Assembly (NCBI RefSeq): GCF_018336915.1
Contig: NZ_CP064923.1
Span: 2,670,001-2,702,000, forward strand
From: Acaryochloris marina S15
GTDB lineage: Bacteria > Cyanobacteriota > Cyanobacteriia > Thermosynechococcales > Thermosynechococcaceae
Direction: 5' to 3'
Length of the DNA stretch: 32,000 nt
Shown here piece after piece: positions 8,151 through 27,311 of the stretch. Both the position numbers and the translations under genes were made by a program. Within the stretch, counting starts at the first letter, position 1; each line of letters opens with the position of its first letter. The notes under the pieces are model-generated. The model was not told the origin of the DNA. It worked only from the letters and a program-made list of their open reading frames with translations, and searched no databases.

Positions 8151-9083
8151 CTATTGTTCTGCTAAAGCTAACAAGGTTACTTCCCAGACTAAGCGGGGTT
8201 GGGCATAGTGACGTAGCTGTTCCTTCGCTTTCTCAAACTGATGGACCAAGGCCGAATTACCATAGGTGCGCCAGTATACCTGTTGATAGTAGTCTAGGAG
8301 CCACAGTTGAGAAGGGAGGTCCAAAGCTTGATCAATTTTTTGAGCTAGCCCCAGACAGGCTAGAGGCGTGTTGAGAGTCTCCAAATCTGCCTGCAAGAGA
8401 TCTGGTGAAATCGAGTCTTGCTGATGCCAATGTGAGATCGCACCCCCAGGACTTCCCTGGGCCATCTCGATCAATTGAGGATGATCCAAAACTTCCGTAT
8501 ATCCAGCCTGTTTCAACACCTGTGCCATTTGCTCTGGATTCAGGCGGCAAAATGGGATGCGCTGACAACGCGATACCAACGTCGGTATCAAAGCGTCAAT
8601 ATTAGGTGCCAATAAAACTAACGTGGCATTGCCAGGCTCTTCTAAGCTTTTCAGCAGAGCATTAGCAGCGGCCTCATTCATAGTTTCCGCCCCTTCAAGC
8701 ACTACGGCCAATCGGGATGCCTCCAACGGGGATTGGCTCAGAAACTGAGTCATATCTCGAATTTGGGCCAAGCGAATTTGTGGGTGACTTCTAGGCAGAG
8801 AAATGTCTTGTTCCTGCATTTGAGCCACCGTCAGCAATTTATTCTTATGTTTATAGGTGGGAGCAATCCACAGGCTATCAGGATGATTTTTGAGACTGCG
8901 CCGATCCGTTTGTTCCGGATCTAAAAGCAGACTTAGAAACTGTTCGGCAACGAGGCTCCGTCCAATCCCTTCCGGTCCAGCAAACAAATAAGCAGGGGCG
9001 ACTCGCTGGGTTGAGATTGCCCGACTCAAATATTCAATCGCCGCCGACTGGCCAATAATCCCTGTAAACATTAGGGATACCAT
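8151..9083 (-). CDS. holB: DNA polymerase III delta-prime subunit
   Basis: GQSAAIEYLSRAISTQRVAPAYLFAGPEGIGRSLVAEQF at the N-terminus, a DEAD-box-like VLEGAETMN segment, an SRC motif (LVSRCQRIPF), and the classic position immediately downstream of tmk with a 13-nt overlap. Confidence 0.85.
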   Translation of the reverse strand: MVSLMFTGIIGQSAAIEYLSRAISTQRVAPAYLFAGPEGIGRSLVAEQFLSLLLDPEQTDRRSLKNHPDSLWIAPTYKHKNKLLTVAQMQEQDISLPRSHPQIRLAQIRDMTQFLSQSPLEASRLAVVLEGAETMNEAAANALLKSLEEPGNATLVLLAPNIDALIPTLVSRCQRIPFCRLNPEQMAQVLKQAGYTEVLDHPQLIEMAQGSPGGAISHWHQQDSISPDLLQADLETLNTPLACLGLAQKIDQALDLPSQLWLLDYYQQVYWRTYGNSALVHQFEKAKEQLRHYAQPRLVWEVTLLALAEQ

Positions 9084-11811: not shown

Positions 11812-12021
11812 CCTGTCAATAGAGTCCTACCTACGCAATGGCATCCCTTATTGCTCTAAGTTCTGGGGACAATCTCCTTGAAGCCATGAACAGAAAATCT
11901 CGCCCAAATCTAATCGGTAGCTGGCCGATTAACCCCATTGAGGCAAGAGCTAATCGGCCACTGATGATTTTCTATAGAAGTCTCTATTTTCTATCTAGGG
12001 ACTCAAAAATTGAGGATAGAC

Positions 12022-12240
12022 TTAACGGGTAAAACTTAATCTCTTAGATCTGCGTAAATAGAACTTTGACAAAGTCAAAGGCCAATGAATAATTTGATGT
12101 TTTGAACGCTTTTTTTGAGTCAGATATTGATCTGATTTTGTAGAAGGGACTTCTATCCAACAATGGGGACAGAACCAGCTAACTCTATCAAAGTGGATTT
12201 GTCGTAGCAATGTATTCGAGCAGCATGGACAGTCAGTCAT
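12022..12240 (-). CDS. small zinc-ribbon protein (CPCC...CPHC)
   Basis: 72-aa ORF. The N-terminal MTDCPCCSNTLLRQIHFDRVSWFCPHCWIEVP carries two CxxC pairs. The C-terminal tail is basic and AT-rich and may be over-extended. Divergent from the protelomerase-like gene. Confidence 0.5.
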   Translation of the reverse strand: MTDCPCCSNTLLRQIHFDRVSWFCPHCWIEVPSTKSDQYLTQKKRSKHQIIHWPLTLSKFYLRRSKRLSFTR

Positions 12241-12452
12241 AAGCTTTGTGGAAATTATTGCTGGAAAGAATGATGCTGTTATGTGCTTACTTTAGGTTGC
12301 AATCATGAGGAAGTTGTGAGGGTAGCCTTAAACCTTCACGTCTGGGTATTGAGGAAAGCACTACTATCACTCGCTTTGCAAAAGTTTTATACCTAATGGG
12401 AAATCGACCAATAGGTGTGTAATAATCATCGCAATCTGGTACTTGCAATACT

Positions 12453-14579
12453 ATGCGCCGCTGGCTTAAAAAATTATATGATCACCCATTTTTGCCTGCG
12501 GTAGCTTCTTTAGGAAATACTCCTCAAGATCGCCAGATCGCAGAACAATGGTCGACTTGGATGAAGCAACAGTGGCATGACCATGGCCTAAAAGAGCTGA
12601 AACAGCAGCGCAATTTGATGACGGAGGTGCGGCAGGCACTCAAGCAGCAACTCGGTGAAGAGCATGTGGTCGTAGAGACCATGAATTTCTCACGGGATGA
12701 GTGGATTCAAATCAATTTATCGATTAATGATACGGTGGCAGCTCGCAACGAACAGCAGGGGCTGATTGAACAGCCCGATGCCATTGTCGATCGCGCCAAG
12801 ATGCTGCTAGATAGTCAGGATTGGTCAGAAGTCGCCGCTGGGCTAGCCGTAGTAACCGGACGTCGCTGTACGGAGCTATTACAAACCGCTGAATTTATCT
12901 TTTGCTCCCCCTATAGCGTTTGGTTTACTGGAGCACTGAAACGTCGAAAAGAGTCCATGGAGCTACGTTTTGAAATTCCTACCCTTGCTTCTGCTAAACA
13001 TGCGATCGCAGCCCTAGAGCTTCTCCGGCAACGAGTCAATACCGTGGGATTGGATCTAGAAACCATTAATCGCAAGTACAGTCCCCCCGTAGCCAAAGCC
13101 TGCGATCGGTATTTTGCCGAACTGATTCCCCAACGAGCCGGACGGGGCAATCTGTATACCCACCTATTTCGAACGATCTATGCTCGGATCTCTACCCATT
13201 GGTACGCTCCCCCCACTGTGGCGGATGTTGAATATATGGCTGCGATTCAAGGCCATTTTTTGATCCAGAAGGAGCAGGATACGACGCTCCGCCGATCCCT
13301 TGCCTCCACTCGCCACTACAATGACTACAAAATTGGTGACGGCCAGGGCAATATAGATGGTCGTCAAGGTATCCGACTACGAGATCCAGGGGTGCAGGTC
13401 CTGCAAGTGTTCCAAAGTGCCGCCCCTCAAATTGAACCAGAACCCCTCACTGAATGGGAAGAACAACCAATGATCCGACCTGTTAAACGTCAACACCAGC
13501 GCCCTAAGCGAGAAATTTCCACCCTAAGACTTTACCAAGATGAACGGGATCGGTGGCTCCAGGTGCTCGACCAGTTTGAGCCTCGTGGCACTCAACAAGA
13601 AAAGATGTCTGTGCTGCTGGAATGGCTAGAACAATCCCTAAAAGACGGGACTCCTATGAGTGAGACCCCAGATGATTTAGACCAGCTAGCCCACCTGTTT
13701 ATTGAGCCACTACAGCCCCTCAGAGACCCAGAGGCTATCCGAAACCTGTGCCAGCAAGAAATTTCTGACCTGGAGCAGGACTACTATCCAGAGGATTATT
13801 TGCCCCTGTATAAACGAGCGATCGCAGAAGCAATACGCTCGGGGCAGCTCCCCCTAATTGATGGAAAGACAGCAGAACGAACCAGCTATACCAAAGAGGG
13901 GGTCAACTATGAGCAGCGCACCCATTATGCTCTGTTATTTCTAGACGATCTGGATCATGAATTGGAAGCTCCCGCATCTGATACGCCTCAACAAGTTACA
14001 CCTATTAAATCGGACATTACACCTAAAATTGATTCAGCACCCAGTCAAGCCGACTCACCATCCACAACCGATCAAAAATTAGATACGTTAGCCACGGTAC
14101 TGACACAGCTAGTACAAGTGATGCAGGGAGATTCGGTAGCTCCTCAACCCACTCCAGAACTAGACACTGCGCAGAATAAAATGGCCCACAAGAATGGCCA
14201 TGCCTCATCTCAGCAGGCTAAATCTACAAAATCTTCAACAACAACGCCAGATCCAGAACCTTCTTCTCCCCAAAAGAGCGGCAGACGTTCAGGTAATACG
14301 TCTGCCGCTGCAGAAGCCAAAATCATCCAGGCCATTAACGCGATCATGGACTACAACAATGTTTCCACTCGAACCTTTGATGAAAAATGGATGATTAGCT
14401 CATCTATCCTCAAACGATTGACCAAGTCTTACCAAGGCGTGATTCAGCGGGTCCTAGATGCCCGCAAAGATGAAATTAAACTCCACCATCAGGCCCATGG
14501 TTTGAAAGGCCGTCATAATACTCGCCACGGTCGAGCTGGGATCACGATTGACCAAATAATTCAACTTGAGTTGGATTAA
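12453..14579 (+). CDS. protelomerase (telomere resolvase) family protein with a long low-complexity tail
   Basis: The core (aa approx 125-300) carries GLAVVTGRRCTELL, FTGALKRRKES, LYTHLFRTIYARIS and IQGH...TRHYNDY. Order and spacing match the motifs I remember from N15 TelN and phiKO2 TelK (..SGRRMIEI.., FSGQAKKRSED, SRAIYARIA, LGH...LHYKQF). See findings. Confidence 0.7.
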   Translation: MRRWLKKLYDHPFLPAVASLGNTPQDRQIAEQWSTWMKQQWHDHGLKELKQQRNLMTEVRQALKQQLGEEHVVVETMNFSRDEWIQINLSINDTVAARNEQQGLIEQPDAIVDRAKMLLDSQDWSEVAAGLAVVTGRRCTELLQTAEFIFCSPYSVWFTGALKRRKESMELRFEIPTLASAKHAIAALELLRQRVNTVGLDLETINRKYSPPVAKACDRYFAELIPQRAGRGNLYTHLFRTIYARISTHWYAPPTVADVEYMAAIQGHFLIQKEQDTTLRRSLASTRHYNDYKIGDGQGNIDGRQGIRLRDPGVQVLQVFQSAAPQIEPEPLTEWEEQPMIRPVKRQHQRPKREISTLRLYQDERDRWLQVLDQFEPRGTQQEKMSVLLEWLEQSLKDGTPMSETPDDLDQLAHLFIEPLQPLRDPEAIRNLCQQEISDLEQDYYPEDYLPLYKRAIAEAIRSGQLPLIDGKTAERTSYTKEGVNYEQRTHYALLFLDDLDHELEAPASDTPQQVTPIKSDITPKIDSAPSQADSPSTTDQKLDTLATVLTQLVQVMQGDSVAPQPTPELDTAQNKMAHKNGHASSQQAKSTKSSTTTPDPEPSSPQKSGRRSGNTSAAAEAKIIQAINAIMDYNNVSTRTFDEKWMISSSILKRLTKSYQGVIQRVLDARKDEIKLHHQAHGLKGRHNTRHGRAGITIDQIIQLELD
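13002..13009. repeat. HIP1 copy (GCGATCGC)
   Basis: Exact octamer read in the sequence, inside the protelomerase-like gene. Confidence 0.9.
13818..13825. repeat. HIP1 copy (GCGATCGC)
   Basis: Exact octamer read in the sequence, inside the protelomerase-like gene. Confidence 0.9.
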
Positions 14580-14655
14580 ATTACCAGTACTCGGATACAG
14601 AATGGGTTGTTCGTAAACCCAAAGATATTCGCTAAAGTACGGCTAGTAAACTTTT

Positions 14656-15321
14656 TTATAGAAAACCTTGCTGCTCGCCAAATTTCTTGACCACTGGCAT
14701 ACATCGTCTTTGAAAAAAACTACTCAGTGTAGAGATAGGCAGATCAAACTCCTGAGAAATTTGATCCCATTGCATATCAGAGAAGATGCGCTTCAACAAC
14801 AACACTTGGCAATTGGCATCAGGTCGATTGAGAATATGTAGCTCACGCAATTCTCCAGATGGATCTGTTTCCACCCAATGACGGGTCACTTCCAAAATAG
14901 GAGGGATATCTGGAGGAGCAGCAAGATTTGCCATAGTGTCACCAGCCTTATTAGTTCCAGTTGATGAGACAGGAGAACAAAATCTCGTATGATGCTGAGC
15001 CTTGTTGATCTGAAAGTCTCGTAAACGCCATTTAAGATACTGATTTAACCAGGTAATGATGCTGCTGCGTTCTGGGTCAAACTGCTTTCCGGTACCTGCT
15101 TCACATATATTCTGACAAAAATAAAGCCAAGTCAGTTGTAAGGCATCTTCATAATATGGAGTATGTTCATGCCAAAGCTTTTTCGATTTTTGGATAATCC
15201 TAATTATTTTTGATAAACATTGTTTTCTTTTATAGTGACCTGGAGGATATTGACGAGCTTCCAATAACAATGGCAGAACTTCTACGTCAATTGGATTTGA
15301 ATCTCGATCAGTGATATTCAT
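14656..15321 (-). CDS. sigma-70 family (ECF-like) RNA polymerase sigma factor-like protein
   Basis: 221 aa. The region-2-like segment is YYEDALQLTWLYFCQNI...FDPERSSIITWLNQYLKWRLRDF. The region-4 HTH-like segment is MQWDQISQEFDLPISTLSSFFQRRCMPVVKKF. AT-rich codon usage. Confidence 0.65.
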   Translation of the reverse strand: MNITDRDSNPIDVEVLPLLLEARQYPPGHYKRKQCLSKIIRIIQKSKKLWHEHTPYYEDALQLTWLYFCQNICEAGTGKQFDPERSSIITWLNQYLKWRLRDFQINKAQHHTRFCSPVSSTGTNKAGDTMANLAAPPDIPPILEVTRHWVETDPSGELRELHILNRPDANCQVLLLKRIFSDMQWDQISQEFDLPISTLSSFFQRRCMPVVKKFGEQQGFL

Positions 15322-15727
15322 ATGTCTTGCGTCGTCTAGAGAATAGCAAAGTCGAAAGCTATTAGTTCTTTACAAATTAATCACCCATAAAAATCCATCT
15401 TAAAAAAATTGCTGAAACACTTTAAGCACCTGAGGAGTCCTAAGCCCTCAAAACAACAAAACCATTTCCAGACCAAATCATGAAGTTACGACTAGTTCAC
15501 ATAACAACTGATAACTTGATGCTAGTAACGGCAAGCAACAAGTCCTTTATAATCGCAAAAAGCTATATGAGCAGAAGCTTCTAGAGTTAAAGGTAGCTCT
15601 CTAACCTATCAATTGCCATTAACTTTATTAGTGTTGTAATGGCCAGAAACCACCGCATCTAGATCTATGATTAACTTAGCAAGTTACATCTACCGTACCT
15701 ATCTTTTAGTGCATTCAACCTCGGCCT

Positions 15728-18355
15728 ATGTATGACTCTGGCCCATTTCTCGATCATGAAAATGGGAGAAATCATTTGACCTATGGCCCAGTCCCTAGAC
15801 GAAGGACAAAGCGTCTGCTGGAAGTTCTACTTGCCTATTCAAATGATGAATTCGAAATTAGTGAGCAGCTACGATCAAAAATCAGAGTCAATTGGCAGAC
15901 AGACTATCAACTGGTGGTGGAGACGACTGTTCATGCCTTAGTTTCACTGACCCAATCGGATGCTTATAGTGGTCAGCTTGATAATAATCACGTTAAAACT
16001 TCACTCAAATTATTAGAAAAATTCTTAAATATCCTGGTAGATAATCGTTCTCAGCCCCGAGGATCGCACAAATGGAATTTTACAATTAAGCTCTGGTTTG
16101 ATCGGAACCATACTGCAGATAATTTAGAAAAGTTTTACGACGAATGGGAGCGTCTCAGGCCTTCTAAATCCAAACAAGTCACTGACTATGGTTATAACAC
16201 AAGCCAACCGATTTCTTCTTTACCCGATGTGTCTTATAGTGTTGCCGAAAACAATAGAACACTAAACGCTTCCCTGCAACATAGATCTGATACCCATAGC
16301 AATCAGCAATGCTCTTTCTCGACGGAAGCATATTTGAGACGGTATTCTGAGCGTCATGGCATTTTGAAAGTATTGGGGATGAGAGGGCCAGCTCAGCTGG
16401 ATTCACTCTATACCACAATGCACTTACTGAATGAAGATTCTGTCCTTAGCTCTGAGTCCATCAATTGGCTCGAAGAAAACTACCGTCAGCGCAAGGTTTT
16501 CTTGCTAGAAGAAAAGCGAGCTAAACGACAATCTGGCATAGAGATAGCTAATGCATATCAATATTTGATGGTATTAGGTGGTCCTGGCACAGGCAAATCT
16601 ACCTTCTTACGAAAAATAGGACTAGAGACCCTCCATAATAGATATCAAGAGGGCTATGAATATAACTGCATTCCCATCTTTATTGAGCTAAAAAAATTTA
16701 GCTTTACAGAAGTTGATCTGGAATCAGCAATTATTGAAGAATTCAAAATTTGTGGTTTTTCTAAACCGCAACATTTTTTAGAGAAAGCTCTGGTGCAAGG
16801 GAATTTGCTGCTATTGCTGGATGGGCTGGATGAAGTGCCGATGGAGCAAATGAGCGAGGCGATTTCAAAAATCCAAGACTTTGCCAATCGATTTCACCAA
16901 AATCGGTTCATCATTACCTGTAGACCTGCAGCATACAGATACAACCTCCGCAATTTCACAGATGTTGTGATTGCCGAGTTTGATGATCATCAGATCAGGC
17001 AGTTTATAGAGAAATGGTTTTATAACCAACCCCAACAGGGTCGAAAATGTTGGGAGCAACTCAATACTGATAGTAATACGGCAGCAAAAGAGCTGACTCG
17101 AACGCCATTACTTCTCACCATGCTTTGCCTTGTTTTCCAAAGGGAAGGACAGTTCCCGAAGCACAGAGCCACTTTGTATGAAAAGTCTCTATGGGTGCTT
17201 TTAGAAGAATGGGATGCCGAAAAGGATGTTCCGAGAGAAGGTATTTATAAAGGACTGGCAACAAAACGCAAAGAGATTATTCTGTCAAAAATTGCTTTTG
17301 ATGCTTTTCAGAGAGATGAATTATTTATCACAAGACGAACGCTAACCCAGCAAATCGAGGAACTATTGAGTGAAATGCTTCCTGATATTGCTTTAATTGA
17401 TGGCAAGAAAGTCTTGAAATCAATTGAATTACAACATGGTCTATTGGTTGAACGGGTCGAATCTGTATACTCATTTTCGCACTTAACCATACAAGAATTT
17501 CTAGCTGCTCAGTATATTTTTGCTCAGTCCAAAAATGATGATTTTCTTTTACAAGACTTGATTGAACAATATTTAACGGATGACCGTTGGCAAGAAATTT
17601 TCTTGTTGTTATCAGGTATGAGTAAGGCAGATAAAATTTTACAAATTATGGACAGACATGCTCGAAGCTATCTAGACAGTTCTCCACCCCTCCAGAAGTT
17701 ACTTCGATGTGCAGATCTGAGTACTCAAGATACAGAAGGTGATTTTAAGTCAGCAGCCAAAAGGGCTACTGCAATTGGACTTTTTTTCCCTGGGGTACAT
17801 CCTCTCTATCCCATTACCCGCTTCTCAAACCCTGATGATGCTATCCTCAAAAAAAGACTTTATTATACCTATGACTTAGCCCGTGAGCTTACAGGTGCTC
17901 TTACGAATAGACGGCTACTAACCCTAGCATTAGATCGCAATAGAACGACCGACACGGTGATGTATTGCGGCATAGAAAGCACCCATAAAAATGCATTTTT
18001 GCGTGCAATTAAGATTTCAATTATTAGTGCTAAAAAATTCAAGGAAGCGAAAATATTCAATAATGTAGACTTCAATGAGCTGGTTAGAGCCCTTGAGTTG
18101 TTAAAAAGTGATATCCCAAGTGAATTAGCACCTTTCGAGGAGAATATGGAATTCGCTAAGCGTGCTCAGCAGATTTGGATTGATGCGTTTAAAGTTAATT
18201 TTGAATTGGTTAGCTTTTCTTTAAAAGACTTGAATTTATTGAATAATTACCTCAAGTCCATGATTGTTATCATTCACTGCCAGAGATCTTCTTTATCATA
18301 CTCGCAATCAATATGGGACAGCATTGAATCCAGAATATTAGTTGCCAATAAATAA
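15728..18355 (+). CDS. NACHT-domain STAND NTPase with unassigned N- and C-terminal regions
   Basis: 875 aa. Walker A is LMVLGGPGTGKSTF (nt 16577-16603) and Walker B is LLLLLDGLDEV (nt 16805-16837). These are followed by ITCRP and a winged-helix/helical region typical of NACHT. I recognise no WD40, TPR or LRR repeats and no known effector domain. Confidence 0.9.
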   Translation: MYDSGPFLDHENGRNHLTYGPVPRRRTKRLLEVLLAYSNDEFEISEQLRSKIRVNWQTDYQLVVETTVHALVSLTQSDAYSGQLDNNHVKTSLKLLEKFLNILVDNRSQPRGSHKWNFTIKLWFDRNHTADNLEKFYDEWERLRPSKSKQVTDYGYNTSQPISSLPDVSYSVAENNRTLNASLQHRSDTHSNQQCSFSTEAYLRRYSERHGILKVLGMRGPAQLDSLYTTMHLLNEDSVLSSESINWLEENYRQRKVFLLEEKRAKRQSGIEIANAYQYLMVLGGPGTGKSTFLRKIGLETLHNRYQEGYEYNCIPIFIELKKFSFTEVDLESAIIEEFKICGFSKPQHFLEKALVQGNLLLLLDGLDEVPMEQMSEAISKIQDFANRFHQNRFIITCRPAAYRYNLRNFTDVVIAEFDDHQIRQFIEKWFYNQPQQGRKCWEQLNTDSNTAAKELTRTPLLLTMLCLVFQREGQFPKHRATLYEKSLWVLLEEWDAEKDVPREGIYKGLATKRKEIILSKIAFDAFQRDELFITRRTLTQQIEELLSEMLPDIALIDGKKVLKSIELQHGLLVERVESVYSFSHLTIQEFLAAQYIFAQSKNDDFLLQDLIEQYLTDDRWQEIFLLLSGMSKADKILQIMDRHARSYLDSSPPLQKLLRCADLSTQDTEGDFKSAAKRATAIGLFFPGVHPLYPITRFSNPDDAILKKRLYYTYDLARELTGALTNRRLLTLALDRNRTTDTVMYCGIESTHKNAFLRAIKISIISAKKFKEAKIFNNVDFNELVRALELLKSDIPSELAPFEENMEFAKRAQQIWIDAFKVNFELVSFSLKDLNLLNNYLKSMIVIIHCQRSSLSYSQSIWDSIESRILVANK

Positions 18356-18500
18356 TAGCTAGTAGAAAGCTCAAAGCCTATCCCTTGACATTGAGATGAA
18401 CGGCTTTCAAGTCGAGTGAACGATTCCTATTTCACGATAAGCTAATGGCTAATTGGATTGTGCTTTAAAAATCTCTTCGTTCGGCCATCAATATACCCCT

Positions 18501-20219
18501 ATGGTGCTATTAAAATTTTGGGCTACTTGCTCTAGCATGTGTTTTGCCATTAGCACCTTAGTTAGCCCGTGTCTAGCAGCTCCACCTTCTATTCAGGGTC
18601 GAACGGGCCTCATCACCTCTGCCCATCCCGACGCCACAAGGGTTGGTTTAGAGATCCTCAAGCAAGGTGGCAATGCTATAGATGCTGCCGTGGCCACAGC
18701 GATGGCTATATCAGTGGCGGAACCCTTCTCCGCAGGGATTGGAGGAGGGGGATTCTTACTTTTGCGACTCGGGGAAACCAATCAGATGATTGCCCTAGAT
18801 TTTCGTGAGCGGGCACCTCTGAAAGCAAACTCTCGACTCTACCTTGATGCAGAGGGGCAGGTGATTCCCCGAGCTAGTATTGATGGTCATCGAGCCGTAG
18901 CCGTTCCTGGCACCATTGCAGGTTTGCAAGCTATTCACCAAAAATATGGTCGATTGCCTTGGCAAACGTTGCTGAATCCTGCAATCAAATTGGCGGAAGA
19001 GGGATTTGTGGTGAGCGATCGCACTCACCGTATCATCCTCCTCAGGCAAAAGGCTCTCGCAGCAAACCCCGCTGCTCAGAAGATTTTTCTCCCCAAGGGT
19101 CAACCGTTAGCCGTTGGCAGTCGCCTCATCCAAACAGACTTAGCTAACACCCTCAAACGACTCGCCCAGGATCCCCAGGCTTTTTACTCTGGCTCTATCG
19201 CCCTAGCGATTGCCAAGGATATGCAGAAAAATGATGGCATCGTCTCCCTCTGGGATTTAAAAACCTATGCCCCTACTTGGCGAGAGCCTTTATGTGGCGA
19301 GTTCCAACAACTGCAAGTCTGCTCTATGCCTCCCCCTTCTTCGGGGGGTGTTCATCTAATCCAGATATTAAATCTACTCACTTTAGGGCAGCCATTTTCT
19401 ACAAAGGCAGATCATCCTGATTATTTACATGCCTTAGTAGAGGCCATGAAAATTGCCTATGCCGATCGCGCTGAATATCTAGGAGATACTGATTTCGTTG
19501 AGGTTCCAGTCCAGGAATTGATCAGCCCTCAATATGCCCAGCGTCGCTTTCAGGAGATTAATCCTAATCAAGCTCGCCCGGCGGAGCAGGTTAAGGCCAT
19601 GAATTCCCAGACGTTGAAGTGGCTGCAAAAAGAGTCGAATGATACCAGTCACTTAAATGTAGTGGATCGCGATCGCAATGCCGTCAGCCTCACGTTTACC
19701 CTCAATTTAGGATTTGGGGCCGGGGTCGTCGTCCCAGGAACAGGAATCATTCTAAATAATGAGATGGATGATTTTGCGACCGCGCCGGGGGTCCCCAATG
19801 CCTTTGGGTTAGTTGGCAATACTCAAAATGCGATCGCACCCACCAAAAAACCCCTCTCCAGCATGACGCCGACCATCGTGACGGAAGCAGGGAAATTAAG
19901 GCTGGTGGTTGGGGCCGCCGGGGGCAGCACGATTATCACCACCGTATTGCAGTTAGTCATGAATGTTTTGGTCTTTGAGCAGGATGTAGCCACGGCGATT
20001 CATGCCCCTAAAGTTCATCACCAATGGCGACCTTTGCCCTTACGCATGGAAGAATGGGTGCAATTTCCTCAAACAACTGTGGAAGAGCTGAAACAGCGAG
20101 GACATGACATTCAAGGGAGAACTCAATGGGGCAATGCCAACTTAATTGAAGTGACGCCCCAAGATGAATTGTTCGGCGCTGCTGATCCCCGAGGAGAAGG
20201 GACAGCATTAGGTTATTAA
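18501..20219 (+). CDS. ggt: gamma-glutamyltranspeptidase
   Basis: Autoprocessing/catalytic Thr context NDTSHLNVVD and downstream GFGAGVVVPGTGIILNNEMDDF and PLSSMTPT motifs. The ORF track starts at TTG 18453. I prefer ATG 18501, which begins a signal-peptide-like MVLLKFWATCSSMCFAISTLVSPCLA. Confidence 0.93.
   Translation: MVLLKFWATCSSMCFAISTLVSPCLAAPPSIQGRTGLITSAHPDATRVGLEILKQGGNAIDAAVATAMAISVAEPFSAGIGGGGFLLLRLGETNQMIALDFRERAPLKANSRLYLDAEGQVIPRASIDGHRAVAVPGTIAGLQAIHQKYGRLPWQTLLNPAIKLAEEGFVVSDRTHRIILLRQKALAANPAAQKIFLPKGQPLAVGSRLIQTDLANTLKRLAQDPQAFYSGSIALAIAKDMQKNDGIVSLWDLKTYAPTWREPLCGEFQQLQVCSMPPPSSGGVHLIQILNLLTLGQPFSTKADHPDYLHALVEAMKIAYADRAEYLGDTDFVEVPVQELISPQYAQRRFQEINPNQARPAEQVKAMNSQTLKWLQKESNDTSHLNVVDRDRNAVSLTFTLNLGFGAGVVVPGTGIILNNEMDDFATAPGVPNAFGLVGNTQNAIAPTKKPLSSMTPTIVTEAGKLRLVVGAAGGSTIITTVLQLVMNVLVFEQDVATAIHAPKVHHQWRPLPLRMEEWVQFPQTTVEELKQRGHDIQGRTQWGNANLIEVTPQDELFGAADPRGEGTALGY
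19015..19022. repeat. HIP1 copy (GCGATCGC)
   Basis: Exact octamer read in the sequence. Confidence 0.9.
19669..19676. repeat. HIP1 copy (GCGATCGC)
   Basis: Exact octamer read in the sequence. Confidence 0.9.
19830..19837. repeat. HIP1 copy (GCGATCGC)
   Basis: Exact octamer read in the sequence. Confidence 0.9.
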
Positions 20220-20490
20220 AACCGTATGTATCAAAAAACTAGAATCACAAACGGTTCAATTTTACTCTCAATACATAGAAAGTTTGCACGTATCAAGCCC
20301 AATCTTTTTGGGTATCTTAAGACAGAATAGAACCCACAACATCTCACTATTTAAGCCATTTCAGTCGCTCATGAAATTAGCGACTGGCACTATATTTTTC
20401 CGCAATTTAGTCAATTAAGCTGTTTTTTTCAGGAATATCAAGATTCACCTATTAACCGAACAACAAGTCCCTCTGCAGTCGAGACTTATC

Positions 20491-21375
20491 TTGGAACCGA
20501 ATCTGGACCAACTCTTCAATATTTGCCCAGAGATCATCTGTCTATTGAAGCCCAACTACACTATCCACCGAGTAAATGCATCATTTACTCAGCTATTCGG
20601 CTGGGATGCCAGTCGAGTCCAAGGGCGGTCTTTTCTTGATTTTGTCCATGTTGAATGGATACAGCAAACCCAGCAGACCCTCCAATCTACGATCAATCAG
20701 ATCATCCCCAGCTTTGAAACCCTGCACTGCAAGGCAGATGGTAATCAGACCTACTTAACTTGGTCCTTTAGCTTTGACCCCAGCTCAAACTCCATCTTGG
20801 GCATCGCCCGAGAGAGTGAGGCCCTCAAACGATTTCAAGAGGGCATTCTGCAAGAGAATTTTCGCCTCACCGAACTGGCCTATACCGATTCCTTGACGGA
20901 GTTGATGAATCGAAGGGGGTTTCTGACCCAACTCCAGCAATATCAGTCTTTTGCCACTCGCACTCAACGCCCCTTATCCATCCTGTTGCTGGATGTAGAT
21001 TACTTCAAAACCTTTAATGATTCCTACGGTCATTCGGCGGGGGATCAGGCATTAGTATTAATTGCCAGCATCCTCAAAACCAACTTACGCCGAAGCGACT
21101 TGGCCGGTCGCTATGGTGGGGAAGAATTTGTGGTGTGTTTGCCAGACAGTGACCAGCAGGGGTCTTTTACAGTGGCCGAGTCGTTACGACAGGCGGTGGA
21201 TAACTATGGCTGGCCCATTCAAGACGTTACGATCAGTGTGGGGATTGCGACTGCGATCGCAACTCAAGAATCCACCTATAAAACGGCCAAGGAACTGATC
21301 GATGAGGCCGATCAAGCCTTATACCATTCCAAACAATCAGGCCGAAATTGCTCCACCCATCACGCCAACCTATAG
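20491..21375 (+). CDS. PAS-GGDEF diguanylate cyclase
   Basis: An N-terminal PAS-like segment (YTIHRVNASFTQLFGWDASRVQGRSFLDF). A GGDEF domain with an intact GGEEF active site (RYGGEEFVVCL) and an RxxD I-site five residues upstream (RRSD). TTG start. Confidence 0.9.
   Translation: MEPNLDQLFNICPEIICLLKPNYTIHRVNASFTQLFGWDASRVQGRSFLDFVHVEWIQQTQQTLQSTINQIIPSFETLHCKADGNQTYLTWSFSFDPSSNSILGIARESEALKRFQEGILQENFRLTELAYTDSLTELMNRRGFLTQLQQYQSFATRTQRPLSILLLDVDYFKTFNDSYGHSAGDQALVLIASILKTNLRRSDLAGRYGGEEFVVCLPDSDQQGSFTVAESLRQAVDNYGWPIQDVTISVGIATAIATQESTYKTAKELIDEADQALYHSKQSGRNCSTHHANL
21253..21260. repeat. HIP1 copy (GCGATCGC)
   Basis: Exact octamer read in the sequence. Confidence 0.9.
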
Positions 21376-21426
21376 CTTCAAGCGTTCCCATATCGTCTGC
21401 CGAAATACTATGATGTGCCTTTTGGC

Positions 21427-22125
21427 ATGACTTGGATTCTTACCAACGACGATGGCATTGACGCCCCAGGAATCTCAGCCTTAGGACAGGCCATCGATCA
21501 GCCCCTCTTAATCATCGCTCCCCTCACCCACCATTCAGGTTGTGGGCATCAAGTGACGACCTCAGGCCCCATTGCCATCGAAAAGCGGAAGATACCGCTG
21601 GGGAATAAGCTGTTGCTCAGCTACGGAATTGGAGGTACTCCTGTGGATTGTGTGAGGGTGGCGCTTCAGCATCTCTGCCCCACCCTCACCTGGGTCCTGT
21701 CCGGCATCAATGAGGGAGGCAACTTAGGATCGGACATCTATGTATCAGGAACCGTTGCTGCCGTGCGTGAAGCTGCTTTACACGAAATTCCGGGGATTGC
21801 CATTTCCCAATATCATCGCCGGGACCGCCCCATCGATTGGTCTCGTTCTACTCGCTGGGCCCAGCAGGTTATCGAGTACTTACTCAAGCAGCCCCTCCCC
21901 AACCAAGCATTTTGGAATGTCAACTTACCCCATCTCTCCCCAGAGGCTGCCGATCCAGCGATTATTCATTGCCCCTTATCCCGAAAACCCCTCCCGGTTG
22001 CCTATCGTCAGGAAGCAGCAGGACTCGTCTATTCCGGTAATTATCACGGTCGCGAACATGAGCCGGGTAGTGATGTCGATATCTGTTTTCAAGGAAATAT
22101 TGCCGTCACTCAGATGCAAGTGTGA
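21427..22125 (+). CDS. surE: 5'/3'-nucleotidase SurE
   Basis: ILTNDDGIDAPGI N-terminal signature, GINEGGNLG, and YVSGTVAAVREA. The ORF track starts at GTG 21415, while ATG 21427 gives the canonical MTWILTNDDG N-terminus. Confidence 0.9.
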   Translation: MTWILTNDDGIDAPGISALGQAIDQPLLIIAPLTHHSGCGHQVTTSGPIAIEKRKIPLGNKLLLSYGIGGTPVDCVRVALQHLCPTLTWVLSGINEGGNLGSDIYVSGTVAAVREAALHEIPGIAISQYHRRDRPIDWSRSTRWAQQVIEYLLKQPLPNQAFWNVNLPHLSPEAADPAIIHCPLSRKPLPVAYRQEAAGLVYSGNYHGREHEPGSDVDICFQGNIAVTQMQV

Positions 22126-22171
22126 TAGTTAGTTTTATGTACTAATGTAAAGATATTGACGTCATAACGGT

Positions 22172-22208
22172 TTGACAGCTTGACAGCAATATGTCTAATC
22201 TTTAAGCT
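22172..22208 (+). promoter_or_regulatory. candidate sigma-70-type promoter(s) built on a tandem TTGACAGC duplication
   Basis: TTGACAGC occurs twice in tandem (22172-22179 and 22180-22187). The first TTGACA is followed after 18 nt by TAATCT (22196-22201). The second is followed after 17 nt by TAAGCT (22203-22208). Located 36-70 nt upstream of ATG 22244. Confidence 0.3.
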
Positions 22209-22215
22209 GTATCCT

Positions 22216-22227
22216 ATACCCGGGTAT
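22216..22227. promoter_or_regulatory. perfect 12-bp palindrome ATACCCGGGTAT, a candidate operator
   Basis: Read directly from the sequence. It lies between the candidate -10 elements and the start codon of the RHH-like gene. Confidence 0.3.
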
Positions 22228-22243
22228 CCATTCACTAAGTCAT

Positions 22244-22570
22244 ATGCAAGATAAACAAAAGGTTACTCTTTACCTGCCACCCGACCTTCATCGTCAGCTC
22301 AAAATCCGAGGTGCCGTTGATGCAGAGCCCATGTCAGCCATTGCTGAGCGGGCCATTGATTTTTACCTGGGTCATCCTGAGGTGGTGGAGCAAACAGAAG
22401 CGTCTCATGGGTCTACCCACCAAGTCTATGCCTGCCCCGAATGTACTACGACTGTAGTTTTGCGAGCGGGTGAGATGGTTTCCCTGAAAGAGCAACCTGC
22501 CATGTTAAGTGATGATGGACTGAAGGTTCAACCTGCAGCTGCCGAAGAACTCGTGGGAGCGAGTGTCTGA
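22244..22570 (+). CDS. ribbon-helix-helix-like small protein
   Basis: 108 aa. The N-terminus KQKVTLYLPPDLHRQLKIRGAVDAEPMSAIAERAIDFYL has the beta-strand/helix/helix pattern of CopG/Arc/ParG-type RHH proteins. A single CPEC lies further on. Located upstream of the AAA+ gene. Confidence 0.55.
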   Translation: MQDKQKVTLYLPPDLHRQLKIRGAVDAEPMSAIAERAIDFYLGHPEVVEQTEASHGSTHQVYACPECTTTVVLRAGEMVSLKEQPAMLSDDGLKVQPAAAEELVGASV

Positions 22571-22656
22571 TTATTCAGACTCTTAGGGCTTTGTAGCTGT
22601 TTGTCCAACTTCATGCATCCTCTGTAATCAACCCCCTGCATTGGGAGACAAAGGTC

Positions 22657-24162
22657 ATGAAAGAAGAGCTAAGTATTCTTATCCAAGCTCAATATCCTTT
22701 GATCTACCTCGTTACTCCTGAGGAAGAACGGGCAGAGGAGGCTATTGCTGCTATTGCTCAAAGGCAACCGGAACAGAAAGTGTTTGTCTGGACCCTGACT
22801 CGGGGGACTGTTGAATATGGGCAACCCCGCAGTTCCACCCAACACAGTACTGTTTCCCCCCAGATGGCGATTCAGTCAGCGATTGGGGAACGTCAAAATG
22901 CCATTTTTATCTTCAAGGATCTGCATCCGTTCCTGGATAGTGCTGAAGTCGTGCGATGGTTACGAGATGCGATCGCAAGCTTCAAAAACACCCATAAAAC
23001 CATTATCTTGATGTCTCCCGTTCATCAGGTCCCCCTCGAACTTGAGAAAGAAATGGTCGTACTCGACTATCCCTTTCCTGACCTGGCAGAACTGCAAGAC
23101 GTTCTCGATCGGCAGTTACTCCTTACCGGTCGTCCTTTAGGAACACCCGCACGGGAAAAGTTGCTGAAAGCAGCCCTAGGATTGACCAAAGATGAAGCCG
23201 AAAAAGTTTACCGCAAAGCCAAAGTAACGACCGGCCAACTCACCGAATCAGAAGTGGAAGTTGTTCTCTCAGAAAAGAAACAGCTGATTCGCCGGAACGG
23301 CATTCTGGACTATATCGAATGTGATCAAACCATTGATGCAGTCGGTGGCTTAGAAGAGCTGAAGCATTGGCTTACCCAGCGTTCGGAAGCCTTTACCGAA
23401 CGGGCACGGGAATATGGCTTACCCCAGCCCAAAGGCATGTTAATTTTGGGGGTTCCTGGATGCGGAAAATCCTTGATTGCCAAAACCACTTCGCGATTAT
23501 GGGGCTTACCTCTGCTCCGCCTAGATATGGGACGTGTCTACGATGGCTCCATGGTGGGACGTTCAGAAGCCAATCTGCGAAGCGCCCTTAAAACCGCTGA
23601 GTCCATTTCTCCAGCCATCTTATTTATTGATGAGATGGATAAAGCCTTTGCCGGTGGTGCCGGATCGGCAGATTCAGATGGCGGTACATCCAGTCGAATT
23701 TTCGGGTCTTTCTTAACCTGGATGCAGGAAAAGACCTCTCCAGTCTTTGTCATGGCCACCGCTAACCGGGTTGAGCGGCTACCTGGCGAATTCCTACGCA
23801 AAGGTCGATTTGACGAAATTTTCTTTGTCGATCTGCCGACCCAGCAAGAGCGCCAGCAAATTTTCAATATTCATCTCTCCCAGCGCCGTCGAGACGTTTC
23901 CCGGTTTAACCTAGAGGAGCTAGCAAACGTTTGCGAGGGCTTTTCGGGAGCTGAAATTGAACAAGTTGTCATCGCTGCCATGTATGAAGCCTTTGCCCAG
24001 AATCGCGAATTTACCCAACTTGATATTATTGCTGCCAGCCGCTCCACCTTGCCTCTCTCCAAAACAATGACCGAGCAGGTAATGGCTTTACGGGAGTGGG
24101 CTCGCCAAAGAGCCCGTCCTGCAGCAGCCTCAGTCGCAGAATATCAGCGGCTCGAGTTCTAA
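22657..24162 (+). CDS. ycf46: Ycf46-type AAA+ ATPase
   Basis: 501 aa. The N-terminus ...LIQAQYPLIYLVTPEEERAEEAI is typical of the Ycf46 family. Walker A is GVPGCGKSLIAK and Walker B is ILFIDEMDK. Sensor and arginine-finger region MATANRVERLPGEFLRKGRFDEIFFVDLP. Confidence 0.88.
   Translation: MKEELSILIQAQYPLIYLVTPEEERAEEAIAAIAQRQPEQKVFVWTLTRGTVEYGQPRSSTQHSTVSPQMAIQSAIGERQNAIFIFKDLHPFLDSAEVVRWLRDAIASFKNTHKTIILMSPVHQVPLELEKEMVVLDYPFPDLAELQDVLDRQLLLTGRPLGTPAREKLLKAALGLTKDEAEKVYRKAKVTTGQLTESEVEVVLSEKKQLIRRNGILDYIECDQTIDAVGGLEELKHWLTQRSEAFTERAREYGLPQPKGMLILGVPGCGKSLIAKTTSRLWGLPLLRLDMGRVYDGSMVGRSEANLRSALKTAESISPAILFIDEMDKAFAGGAGSADSDGGTSSRIFGSFLTWMQEKTSPVFVMATANRVERLPGEFLRKGRFDEIFFVDLPTQQERQQIFNIHLSQRRRDVSRFNLEELANVCEGFSGAEIEQVVIAAMYEAFAQNREFTQLDIIAASRSTLPLSKTMTEQVMALREWARQRARPAAASVAEYQRLEF
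22969..22976. repeat. HIP1 copy (GCGATCGC)
   Basis: Exact octamer read in the sequence. Confidence 0.9.
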
Positions 24163-24288
24163 AAGCTTTCTCCTGTTCCCAGCAGGAGAAACCACTAGCT
24201 ATACGCTAGTTCATCCAACCGCAATTCTGTCAGCGTTGCGGTTTATCCCAACCAAACGTTGTTATCTCAATTCCTGGAGGAACATCCA

Positions 24289-24642
24289 ATGTCACACTTT
24301 AGTACTCTCCGCACCAAGATCACTGAAGCTGAAATTCTTAAGTCTTCTCTGAAAGATCTCGGTATTGAAGTTAAAACGAATGCCGATGTACGGGGCTATA
24401 ACGGCCAGCGTGTTCGGGCAGACATCGTTGCTGTTTTAGACGGTGAATATGATTTGGGGTGGTCCCATAATACTGATGGCTCCTTTGATCTGATTGCTGA
24501 TCTATGGGGCGTTGCCAAAAAGCATAATCAGACAGAACTCATTAACTCCATCAATCAGAAGTACGCCGTCACTAAAACATTGTCAGAGATTAAGCGACCT
24601 GAGCTCCAGAATGCCAATGTTAAGTTGGTTCTCCATCACTAA
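24289..24642 (+). CDS. ycf35: Ycf35 / DUF1257 family protein
   Basis: MSHFSTLRTKITEAEILKSSLKDLG... matches the remembered MSHFS.I.T.I hallmark of Ycf35/DUF1257. GGAGG (24276-24280) lies 8 nt upstream of ATG 24289. The ORF-track TTG start at 24259 is less likely. Confidence 0.8.
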   Translation: MSHFSTLRTKITEAEILKSSLKDLGIEVKTNADVRGYNGQRVRADIVAVLDGEYDLGWSHNTDGSFDLIADLWGVAKKHNQTELINSINQKYAVTKTLSEIKRPELQNANVKLVLHH

Positions 24643-24670
24643 TCTCTCTGCGCGTTCCCAAAAATCCTAA

Positions 24671-24698
24671 AGGCTGGCCTCAGGGTCAGCCTTTTTTA
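24671..24698 (+). terminator. rho-independent terminator after ycf35
   Basis: AGGCTGGCC (24671-24679) pairs with GGTCAGCCT (24684-24692), including one G-U pair, around a 4-nt TCAG loop. It is followed by a T-run to 24697, 29 nt after the stop codon. Confidence 0.75.
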
Positions 24699-24799
24699 TG
24701 TCCACAATGTTTAACATTCGTAACCCCTGACAACTCTATTGATACGTCTGTTGCCATCAGACTTAATATAGTCCTAGGTCCCATGTCCGGAGCATCTTT

Positions 24800-27223: not shown

Positions 27224-27311
27224 ACAAAATGTAGAGCTTTGACATCACAGTTTATTTAGCTCAATATTGTGCTGTGATCATATTTCCATACATCAATATC
27301 AAGTGAATGGC

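Follow-up and report, generated by a model that had tools for sequence, protein, structure and literature searches.

Why does a genus in which only circular replicons are on record keep, in the interior of its chromosome, a gene for an enzyme of the kind that makes hairpin telomeres? The question is raised by a stretch of 32,000 nucleotides (nt) of the genome of Acaryochloris marina S15 (NZ_CP064923.1, positions 2,670,001 to 2,702,000; referred to below, at its full length, as the window), in which one open reading frame (ORF) encodes a protein of 708 amino acids (aa) that belongs to the protelomerase, or telomere resolvase, family (Table 1). An earlier note, made from the letters of the sequence, had proposed this homology and had offered two explanations for it, either a hairpin-ended replicon located elsewhere in the genome or an enzyme domesticated for another task. 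Profile, fold and invariant catalytic residues bear out the homology. The either/or is kept here as the right framing, and we tentatively favour a telomere resolvase that acts in trans on a linear substrate not yet recorded in Acaryochloris, a reading that we would place a little below even. What sets this gene, which is under purifying selection, apart from most of its relatives is a single-copy location inside the chromosome.

Profile, fold and active site of a protelomerase

The ORF product is 100% identical to QUY44868.1, deposited for A. marina S15 as 'hypothetical protein I1H34_12775' on a 5.88-Mb contig, and its RefSeq label is 'protelomerase family protein' (WP_249370071.1). RefSeq thus had the identification before us, and protelomerases of cyanobacteria, biochemically validated in 2024, are not a new kind of enzyme, so the surprise that the earlier note attached to the homologue was in part overstated. 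The Pfam profile ResT-TelK_cat (PF16684) matches over nearly its complete length with 97.8 bits against a cut-off of 27 (E=7.5e-28). Neither Phage_integrase (PF00589) nor the Xer profiles of Pfam match the 708-aa protein at E values up to 10, and the profile check that had been proposed thus came out in favour of a protelomerase. Among solved structures, phmmer ranks chains of Agrobacterium TelA best (E=2.5e-6) and TelK next. The TelA equivalog of NCBIfam (NF052462) gives 44.7 bits, under its cut-off of 800, which marks the protein as a distant member of the family and not as an orthologue of TelA.

RefSeq places the start of WP_249370071.1 13 codons downstream of position 12453. This and other RefSeq models, of 695 aa, begin at a non-ATG codon within the ORF. 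The segment MRRWLKKLYD, which lies upstream of the RefSeq start, is kept across the family and includes W4 and L5. Since these two residues are invariant family-wide, the alignment favours the ATG at 12453, and the 708-aa form is more likely to be correct than the 695-aa model.

The four motifs described in the earlier note are present in order, at aa 130–143, 158–168, 234–247 and 265–268/287–292. R137, K163, R240, H268 and Y289 align with R255, K286, R366, H394 and Y405 of the TelA active site (PMC3558466) and are invariant in 79–120 relatives; the active-site set of aa 1–320 is at least 95% conserved in 120 relatives and invariant in 79. The Arg, Lys, Arg, His, Tyr set is therefore aligned and invariant throughout, as the proposed check of catalytic residues required us to establish, and Tyr289, the candidate nucleophile, is encoded by TAC and aligned with Tyr405 of TelA. 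The alignment with TelA starts at about TelA residue 173, and 136 aa precede the first catalytic Arg, in keeping with the short pre-core N-terminus (∼125 aa) remarked on before.

At other positions the protein departs from TelA. His237 is invariant in the whole cyanobacterial family, subtelomeric members included, whereas TelA has Tyr363 at that position, a residue described as unique compared with the His of tyrosine recombinases (PMC3558466). The hairpin-forming residues Tyr201 and Arg205 of TelA fall in a part of the alignment where identity is low, opposite W84, which is conserved in at least 90% of the relatives, and N88, which never varies; an aromatic residue is thus kept, the Arg is not.

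An AlphaFold2 model, built on 79 relatives, has predicted local distance difference test (pLDDT) values mostly of 85–97 over aa 1–320. When the model was compared with the PDB by Foldseek, ranks 1–8 were all protelomerases, with TelA at E=5e-9 (template modelling score 0.57 normalised to target length, ∼285 columns), TelK (2v6e) at 1e-6 and ResT (8vs5) at 3.5e-5. Cre first appears at E=0.026, and lambda-Int and Xer have E values of 0.026 or worse. The fold check suggested in the earlier note thus places the model nearest to the three protelomerases, with the recombinases Cre, lambda-Int and Xer behind them.

Accessory domains and the conserved upstream region

The earlier note had described the ∼270 aa that follow the catalytic core as low-complexity sequence. 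Disordered linkers are indeed predicted by AlphaFold2 (aa 326–358, 508–543 and 557–614), but the model also has a folded region at about aa 360–500 (pLDDT ∼75–93), and this middle part is under purifying selection, with a ratio of non-synonymous to synonymous substitution rates (dN/dS, or omega) of ∼0.14. The folded middle domain, denoted X, is without significant match to a solved fold. Apart from a few relatives, it is particular to the Acaryochloris lineage; a coiled coil takes its place in the other clades. An exhaustive search identified X as the N-terminal domain (aa ∼25–135, 36–54% identity) of a second ResT-TelK_cat lineage (P0124, P0125, P0130, P0132, P0133, P0147 and others; L101), whose catalytic core is only 22–30% identical and which ends in the same C-terminal module. 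Both X and the C-terminal module thus occur in two protelomerase lineages, in different orders, which argues that they are protelomerase-specific modules; the sequences provide evidence of domain shuffling among protelomerases. We also considered the middle domain as an EAD4 adaptor that would link the enzyme to a neighbouring NACHT protein. This was rejected, as the domain shows no similarity to EAD4 and belongs to other protelomerases.

The basic, His-rich module at the C-terminus, which the earlier note had pointed out, is real and common to the whole family, with N635, W646, H678, H688 and N689 conserved. It is 34–39% identical to the C-termini of P0132 and P0147 and matches phrog_34828 (E=2e-5). 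A fold search of the C-terminal half in the PDB returned nothing significant, with winged-helix or sigma-region-4-like hints at E values of 2 or more. TelT, a protelomerase of Leptolyngbya ohadii, has a C-terminal extension that is predicted to bind outer DNA (bioRxiv 10.1101/2024.11.13.623437), and by analogy the module of the Acaryochloris protein is presumably an accessory DNA-binding module.

Upstream of the gene, ∼450–480 nt stay conserved with it even where the flanks change. Most of this conservation is explained by a small zinc-ribbon ORF on the minus strand, whose product begins MTDCPCCSNTLLRQIHFDRVSWFCPHCW; searches of Pfam, of PHROGs and of the protein database gave no match to it. 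The ORF is intact in 7/8 Acaryochloris-clade loci, 213–282 nt from the protelomerase ATG, and both the differences at codon positions 1, 2 and 3 (93/68/212) and an omega of 0.07–0.28 are those of protein-coding DNA. We speculate that the zinc-ribbon protein may be a functional partner or regulator of the protelomerase. The block at ∼12140–12250 was at one point taken for a relic telomere half-site, with 'CATAAGC' resembling motifs near the hairpin tips of L043, L054 and L074. It proved to be the 5' end of the zinc-ribbon ORF, with the motif in the start-codon region, and the candidate was dropped.

A short non-coding element, GTRTGYAATAATCATCGCAAYCTG, directly precedes the ATG. It is kept in 8/8 Acaryochloris-clade loci and absent upstream of the genes of other clades, and may represent a 5' untranslated region, an operator or a half-site. 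An Rfam search of the upstream spacer gave no credible known RNA. The genus consensus of the element shares the 9-mer TATGTAATA with the TelT telomere, and the window has TGTGTAATA, one base off; the chance level of such sharing is 0.0006–0.007, for a comparison that is post hoc and inexact in the window, and we keep it as a lead only. Beyond these loci the element was hit once in metagenomes, on a contig of 146,604 bp that is the presumed carrier of the orthologue P0010, and not at all in viral contigs.

Chromosomal location and the subtelomeric relatives

At least 120 cyanobacterial proteins match the Acaryochloris protein at E values below 1e-108, and 79 loci were retrieved from GTDB at one genome per species. 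Outside Acaryochloris a genome often has more than one copy of the family gene, and the copies lie near contig ends, strongly biased in orientation. When only contigs of 10 kb or more are counted, the 5' end of the gene is <3 kb from a contig end in 16/36 cases and the 3' end in 1/36 (binomial p=2.7e-4), a count in which the ends are not all telomeres because assemblies break at repeats too. The 16:1 asymmetry nevertheless argues that many of these contig ends are telomeres. Palindromes are found at the very ends of several contigs (L037, nt 1–45 with 22-nt arms; L054, nt 1–193 with 96-nt arms; L074, 11–38; L055, 1–23; L041, 1–23; L052, 1–30), from a few hundred nt to ∼2.4 kb upstream of the family genes. 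They are of the snap-back type that arises when an assembly reads through a hairpin, and we regard them as candidate hairpin-telomere sequences of the family. Those of L037 and L055 have a common centre, AGTTCTGAACT. On pLBY, a linear plasmid of Leptolyngbya boryana with terminal inverted repeats, a relative of 37% identity lies 773 nt short of the end. Taken together, the subtelomeric position, the terminal palindromes and the pLBY relative argue that the family does telomere work, in agreement with the 2024 report of cyanobacterial protelomerases at hairpin telomeres (bioRxiv 10.1101/2024.11.13.623437).

The last 70 nt before the ATG contain repeated motifs in other clades, AGATAAGATA in L016–L025 and L082, and TATGGATA in L029–L033, L062 and L002. 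These repeats resemble end sequences of the same contigs, which hints that the enzymes of these clades may bind telomere-like motifs in their own promoters as autoregulatory sites.

The Acaryochloris gene does not fit the description of a subtelomeric gene (a few kb from the replicon end, inward transcription, multiple copies). There is one copy per Acaryochloris genome, ordinary chromosomal genes extend for at least 10 kb to either side of it, and the flanks vary by species between four chromosomal contexts. In a neighbour-joining tree, which carries no bootstrap support, the Acaryochloris sequences form one clade with L012, L013, L014, L060 and L076 as nearest relatives; these outgroups are likewise away from contig ends. 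The reading frame is intact in 7/7 orthologues examined from other Acaryochloris genomes, and dN/dS is 0.03–0.07 in the catalytic region and 0.11–0.16 in the middle and C-terminal parts, in comparisons that span synonymous divergence from 0.3 to saturation. Intact frames and low dN/dS, which answer the earlier note's question about loss-of-function alleles in relatives, argue for a working gene and against a remnant.

The immediate surroundings differ between strains. Relative to A. marina MBIC11017 and AP026075.1 (L001 and L006), a 12.6-kb block of the window (14580–27235) is inverted; it holds the 221-aa ORF (ORF221), the EAD4-NACHT gene, ggt, and genes for GGDEF, surE, AAA, DUF1257 and sucrose synthase. 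One breakpoint lies within ∼27 nt of the protelomerase stop codon, and no direct or inverted repeat is shared between the junctions at 14580–14655 and 27236–27311. The adjacency of the NACHT gene is strain-specific because it was created by this inversion. The earlier note had listed housekeeping neighbours, with no phage, partition or replication genes flanking. Phage and partition genes are indeed missing nearby, but the description passed over the 221-aa ORF and the EAD4-NACHT STAND NTPase gene downstream. In other genomes neither of these is linked to the protelomerase gene.

In MBIC11017 (L001 8224–9279) and AP026075.1 (L006) the hydrolase gene is separated from the zinc-ribbon/protelomerase module by a psbA-type (Photo_RC) gene, which is without counterpart in the window (11812–12018). 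In all four contexts a replication or recombination gene is within about five genes: holB (8151–9083 in the window); rarA/mgsA; recA and dnaB; or ruvB (L094, L096 and L098). By a rough post hoc estimate, the chance of finding such a neighbour in all four contexts is ∼0.002, which we regard as weak evidence.

Table 1. Features of the protelomerase locus and its surroundings, in window coordinates.
Feature	Position	Strand	Remarks
Zinc-ribbon ORF, unannotated	12022..12240	−	72 aa; CPCC-x16-CPHC; starts 213 nt upstream of, and divergent from, the protelomerase gene
Pre-ATG element, non-coding	12415..12438	+	24 nt; ends 14 nt before ATG; near-invariant
Protelomerase-family gene	12453..14579	+	708 aa; Pfam PF16684, 97.8 bits; 100% identity to QUY44868.1 (P0157)
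N-terminal helical and catalytic region	12453..13412	+	aa 1–320; R137/R138, K163, H237, R240, H268, Y289
Pfam ResT-TelK_cat match	12774..13328	+	aa 108–292; profile positions 7–181 of 181
Tyr289 codon (TAC), predicted nucleophile	13317..13319	+	Family-invariant; spanned by the Pfam match; TelA equivalent Tyr405
Folded middle domain X	13650..13967	+	aa ∼400–505; helices and beta-hairpin; pLDDT ∼90
C-terminal helical, basic, His-rich module	14295..14576	+	aa 615–708; pLDDT >90
221-aa ORF without family match	14656–15321	−	Adjoins the EAD4-NACHT-NCH2 gene
EAD4-NACHT-NCH2 STAND NTPase	15728–18355	+	Conflict/immunity-type component; ∼1.1 kb past the protelomerase stop

Possible roles: telomere resolution in trans or a domesticated task

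The gene is on a circular chromosome with no target alongside, and we therefore propose that the enzyme acts in trans, as ResT does from cp26. In Borrelia, resT is carried by the circular plasmid cp26, remote from the telomeres that are resolved in trans (PMC2229028). The flanking spacers of the Acaryochloris gene contain no inverted repeat with arms of >9 nt, which confirms the earlier report that no long palindrome is present there; given the cp26 precedent, its absence is not unusual in itself. That the target usually lies beside the gene is true of N15 and other such phages but not of Borrelia, and remoteness from the target, which had been presented as an oddity, is normal for cellular systems.

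We picture the reaction on the model of TelA and TelK. The protein, taken to be catalytically competent, would bind an inverted-repeat site as a dimer. R137, K163, H237, R240 and H268 would activate the phosphate, and Tyr289 of each subunit would cut one strand, 6 nt apart, to form 3'-phosphotyrosyl links. Each freed 5'-OH strand would then fold back and be resealed onto the complementary strand, to give two covalently closed hairpin ends. The substrate would be telomere junctions, once replicated, that belong to at least one hairpin-ended linear replicon elsewhere in the cell, with X and the C-terminal module serving as accessory DNA-binding or dimerisation modules. That the full catalytic region of the family and its C-terminal module are kept in the Acaryochloris protein is consistent with this proposal; the hairpin-forming activity, the action in trans and the existence of a substrate are what we infer.

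How far the analogy reaches can be judged from the known systems. TelA of A. tumefaciens (PDB 4dwp, 4e10 and related entries) is the best match in sequence and structure, and its R, K, R, H and Y are aligned. The telA gene (Atu2523) lies on the circular chromosome of Agrobacterium and its target on the linear chromosome, a second case, besides ResT, of a resolvase encoded far from its site. Identity to TelA is however only ∼20%, the Acaryochloris protein is without the first ∼170 residues of TelA and has ∼390 extra residues at the C-terminus, and His237, W84 and N88 stand in place of Tyr363, Tyr201 and Arg205. ResT (B. burgdorferi BBB03) offers a parallel in being a PF16684 protein encoded by a cellular resolvase gene on a circular replicon, with a catalytic domain that matches the model structurally (8vs5, E=3.5e-5). 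By sequence it is reached only at E=0.57 (phmmer) and it has neither the X domain nor the C-terminal module; Borrelia moreover has many documented hairpin-ended replicons, whereas none is on record in Acaryochloris. TelN and TelK of the phage-plasmids N15 and phiKO2 share the catalytic fold (TelK 2v6e, Foldseek E=1e-6) and, by analogy, the type of reaction, but the telRL target of the phages adjoins the gene amid phage and partition genes, and nothing of this is seen at the Acaryochloris locus.

Among cyanobacteria, the subtelomeric relatives (Phormidesmis, Leptolyngbyales, Leptolyngbya JSC-1) are 40–59% identical over aa 1–320 and have the same invariant residues and C-terminal module. They differ in being multi-copy, ∼0.2–3 kb from ends, transcribed inwards and equipped with a coiled coil in place of X, whereas the Acaryochloris gene is single-copy and chromosome-internal. 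The pLBY gene of L. boryana is related more distantly. TelT is encoded within LoPAST, a Tn7-like telomeric transposon of L. ohadii, and in vitro it resolves a site composed of two 28-bp inverted-repeat arms to hairpins (bioRxiv 10.1101/2024.11.13.623437). Like the Acaryochloris protein, it is a cyanobacterial protelomerase with a C-terminal extension. A search for the TelT telomere in all loci gave only one half-site with six mismatches, upstream of L014, and no palindrome.

Several observations weigh against a telomere resolvase acting in trans. In complete assemblies the orthologues are at 6.12 of 6.50 Mb (MBIC11017) and 2.94 of 6.42 Mb (AP026075.1), far from the record ends, and neither the window nor the ∼180 kb of DNA examined from Acaryochloris contained a telomere-sized palindrome. 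The 9/9 MBIC11017 plasmids and the 8/8 'Moss Beach' plasmids looked up (pMB01–08), from two finished genomes of the genus other than that of S15, are deposited as circular, a topology that is the depositor's statement and not an experiment. No Acaryochloris plasmid in PLSDB, where plasmids of S15 were looked for and not found, encodes a homologue. A literature search gave no report linking Acaryochloris with linear plasmids or telomeres, and the genus has no recorded linear replicon; the supplements of Hsieh et al. do not mention Acaryochloris. Viral sources yielded only Vibrio phage protelomerases (∼27% identity), with no relative in IMG/VR. TelT is not among the 120 closest relatives listed and has no matching C-terminus, so that an activity of the Acaryochloris protein is extrapolated from it. 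The His at the Tyr363 position of TelA also counts here, as a variant of the whole family and not of the window. Finally, conservation of the gene throughout the genus would need an equally persistent linear replicon, which should have been seen.

The main rival view is that in the Acaryochloris sub-clade the protelomerase has given up telomere maintenance and been domesticated for another sequence-specific cleavage-rejoining task on circular replicons, for example on an inverted-repeat or cruciform intermediate of replication or recombination, perhaps in concert with the zinc-ribbon mini-protein conserved beside it. We consider this a serious alternative, with a probability below that of resolution in trans. 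It would account for a gene found once, and inside the chromosome, in every genome of the Acaryochloris clade, across four contexts, with the nearest outgroups (L012–L014, L060 and L076) also off contig ends while other clades are subtelomeric and multi-copy; for the circular deposition of 17/17 plasmids checked; for very strong purifying selection despite no known substrate; and for the clade-specific architecture, with X in place of the coiled coil and with the divergent zinc-ribbon gene and the invariant pre-ATG element conserved alongside. The replication or recombination gene within about five genes in each context fits as well, as a weak, post hoc point. On the other hand, no alternative target or phenotype is known, and the residues needed for telomere resolution are all retained, the accessory modules are common to telomere-associated relatives and the protein bears no sign of a changed reaction. 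The circular topology of the records, being a depositor statement, counts for less than an experiment would. To our knowledge, all characterised protelomerases maintain hairpin telomeres, and we know of no precedent for a non-telomeric cellular protelomerase. A more specific version concerns the whole sub-clade, Acaryochloris together with its closest relatives. In it, the telomere resolvase left the replicon ends for the circular chromosome, gained the middle domain and the zinc-ribbon partner, and is maintained by strong selection, in cells without linear DNA, for a non-telomeric, sequence-specific hairpin-forming or cut-and-reseal role in chromosome replication, recombination or segregation; we hold this version to be slightly less probable again.

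Three further explanations are effectively excluded. That the enzyme serves the EAD4-NACHT (STAND NTPase) conflict system next to it, or some other defence island, as an effector or a component is an idea that draws on the ∼1.1 kb between the two genes; it is very improbable, since the adjacency is found in this strain only. In MBIC11017 and AP026075.1 the genes are ∼10 kb apart with the block inverted, in other species no NACHT gene is nearby, and the middle domain is unlike EAD4 and protelomerase-specific, so that the unconserved linkage largely refutes the idea. More improbable still is a gene without present function, left over and decaying after a linear plasmid or an N15-like prophage had integrated. 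The ties of the family to linear replicon ends and the flanks that differ between species might suggest such an origin, but the selection analysis refutes it, with 7/7 intact orthologues and dN/dS of 0.03–0.16 up to synonymous saturation. The host-like composition that the earlier note had remarked on is confirmed (GC content 0.49 in the gene, 0.46 in the window), as are two HIP1 octamers inside the gene (at 13002 and 13818; 14 in the window); no phage, partition or replication genes flank it and no relatives are found on viral contigs. Least probable of all is an ordinary Xer- or integrase-type tyrosine recombinase misread as a protelomerase. His opposite Tyr363 of TelA, as in tyrosine recombinases, would suit it, but neither the silence of the integrase and Xer profiles nor the Foldseek ranking, from 5e-9 to 3.5e-5 for TelA, TelK and ResT against 0.026 or worse for Cre, lambda-Int and Xer, agrees with such an assignment.

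What is new is the contrast that this 'orphan' clade, strongly conserved and internal to the chromosome, forms with a family of subtelomeric genes, in a genus whose recorded replicons are all circular, and, in addition, the shuffled accessory domain and the partner mini-gene. The analysis also provides candidate telomere sequences for the subtelomeric relatives, a conserved mini-gene that is unannotated, and support for the 708-aa start over that of RefSeq. If resolution in trans is correct, hairpin-ended replicons would have been missed by standard assembly, and it would be in question both how much linear DNA cyanobacteria contain and how complete their 'finished' genomes are. If Acaryochloris has no such replicon, its enzyme would be the first cellular protelomerase to work outside telomere maintenance.

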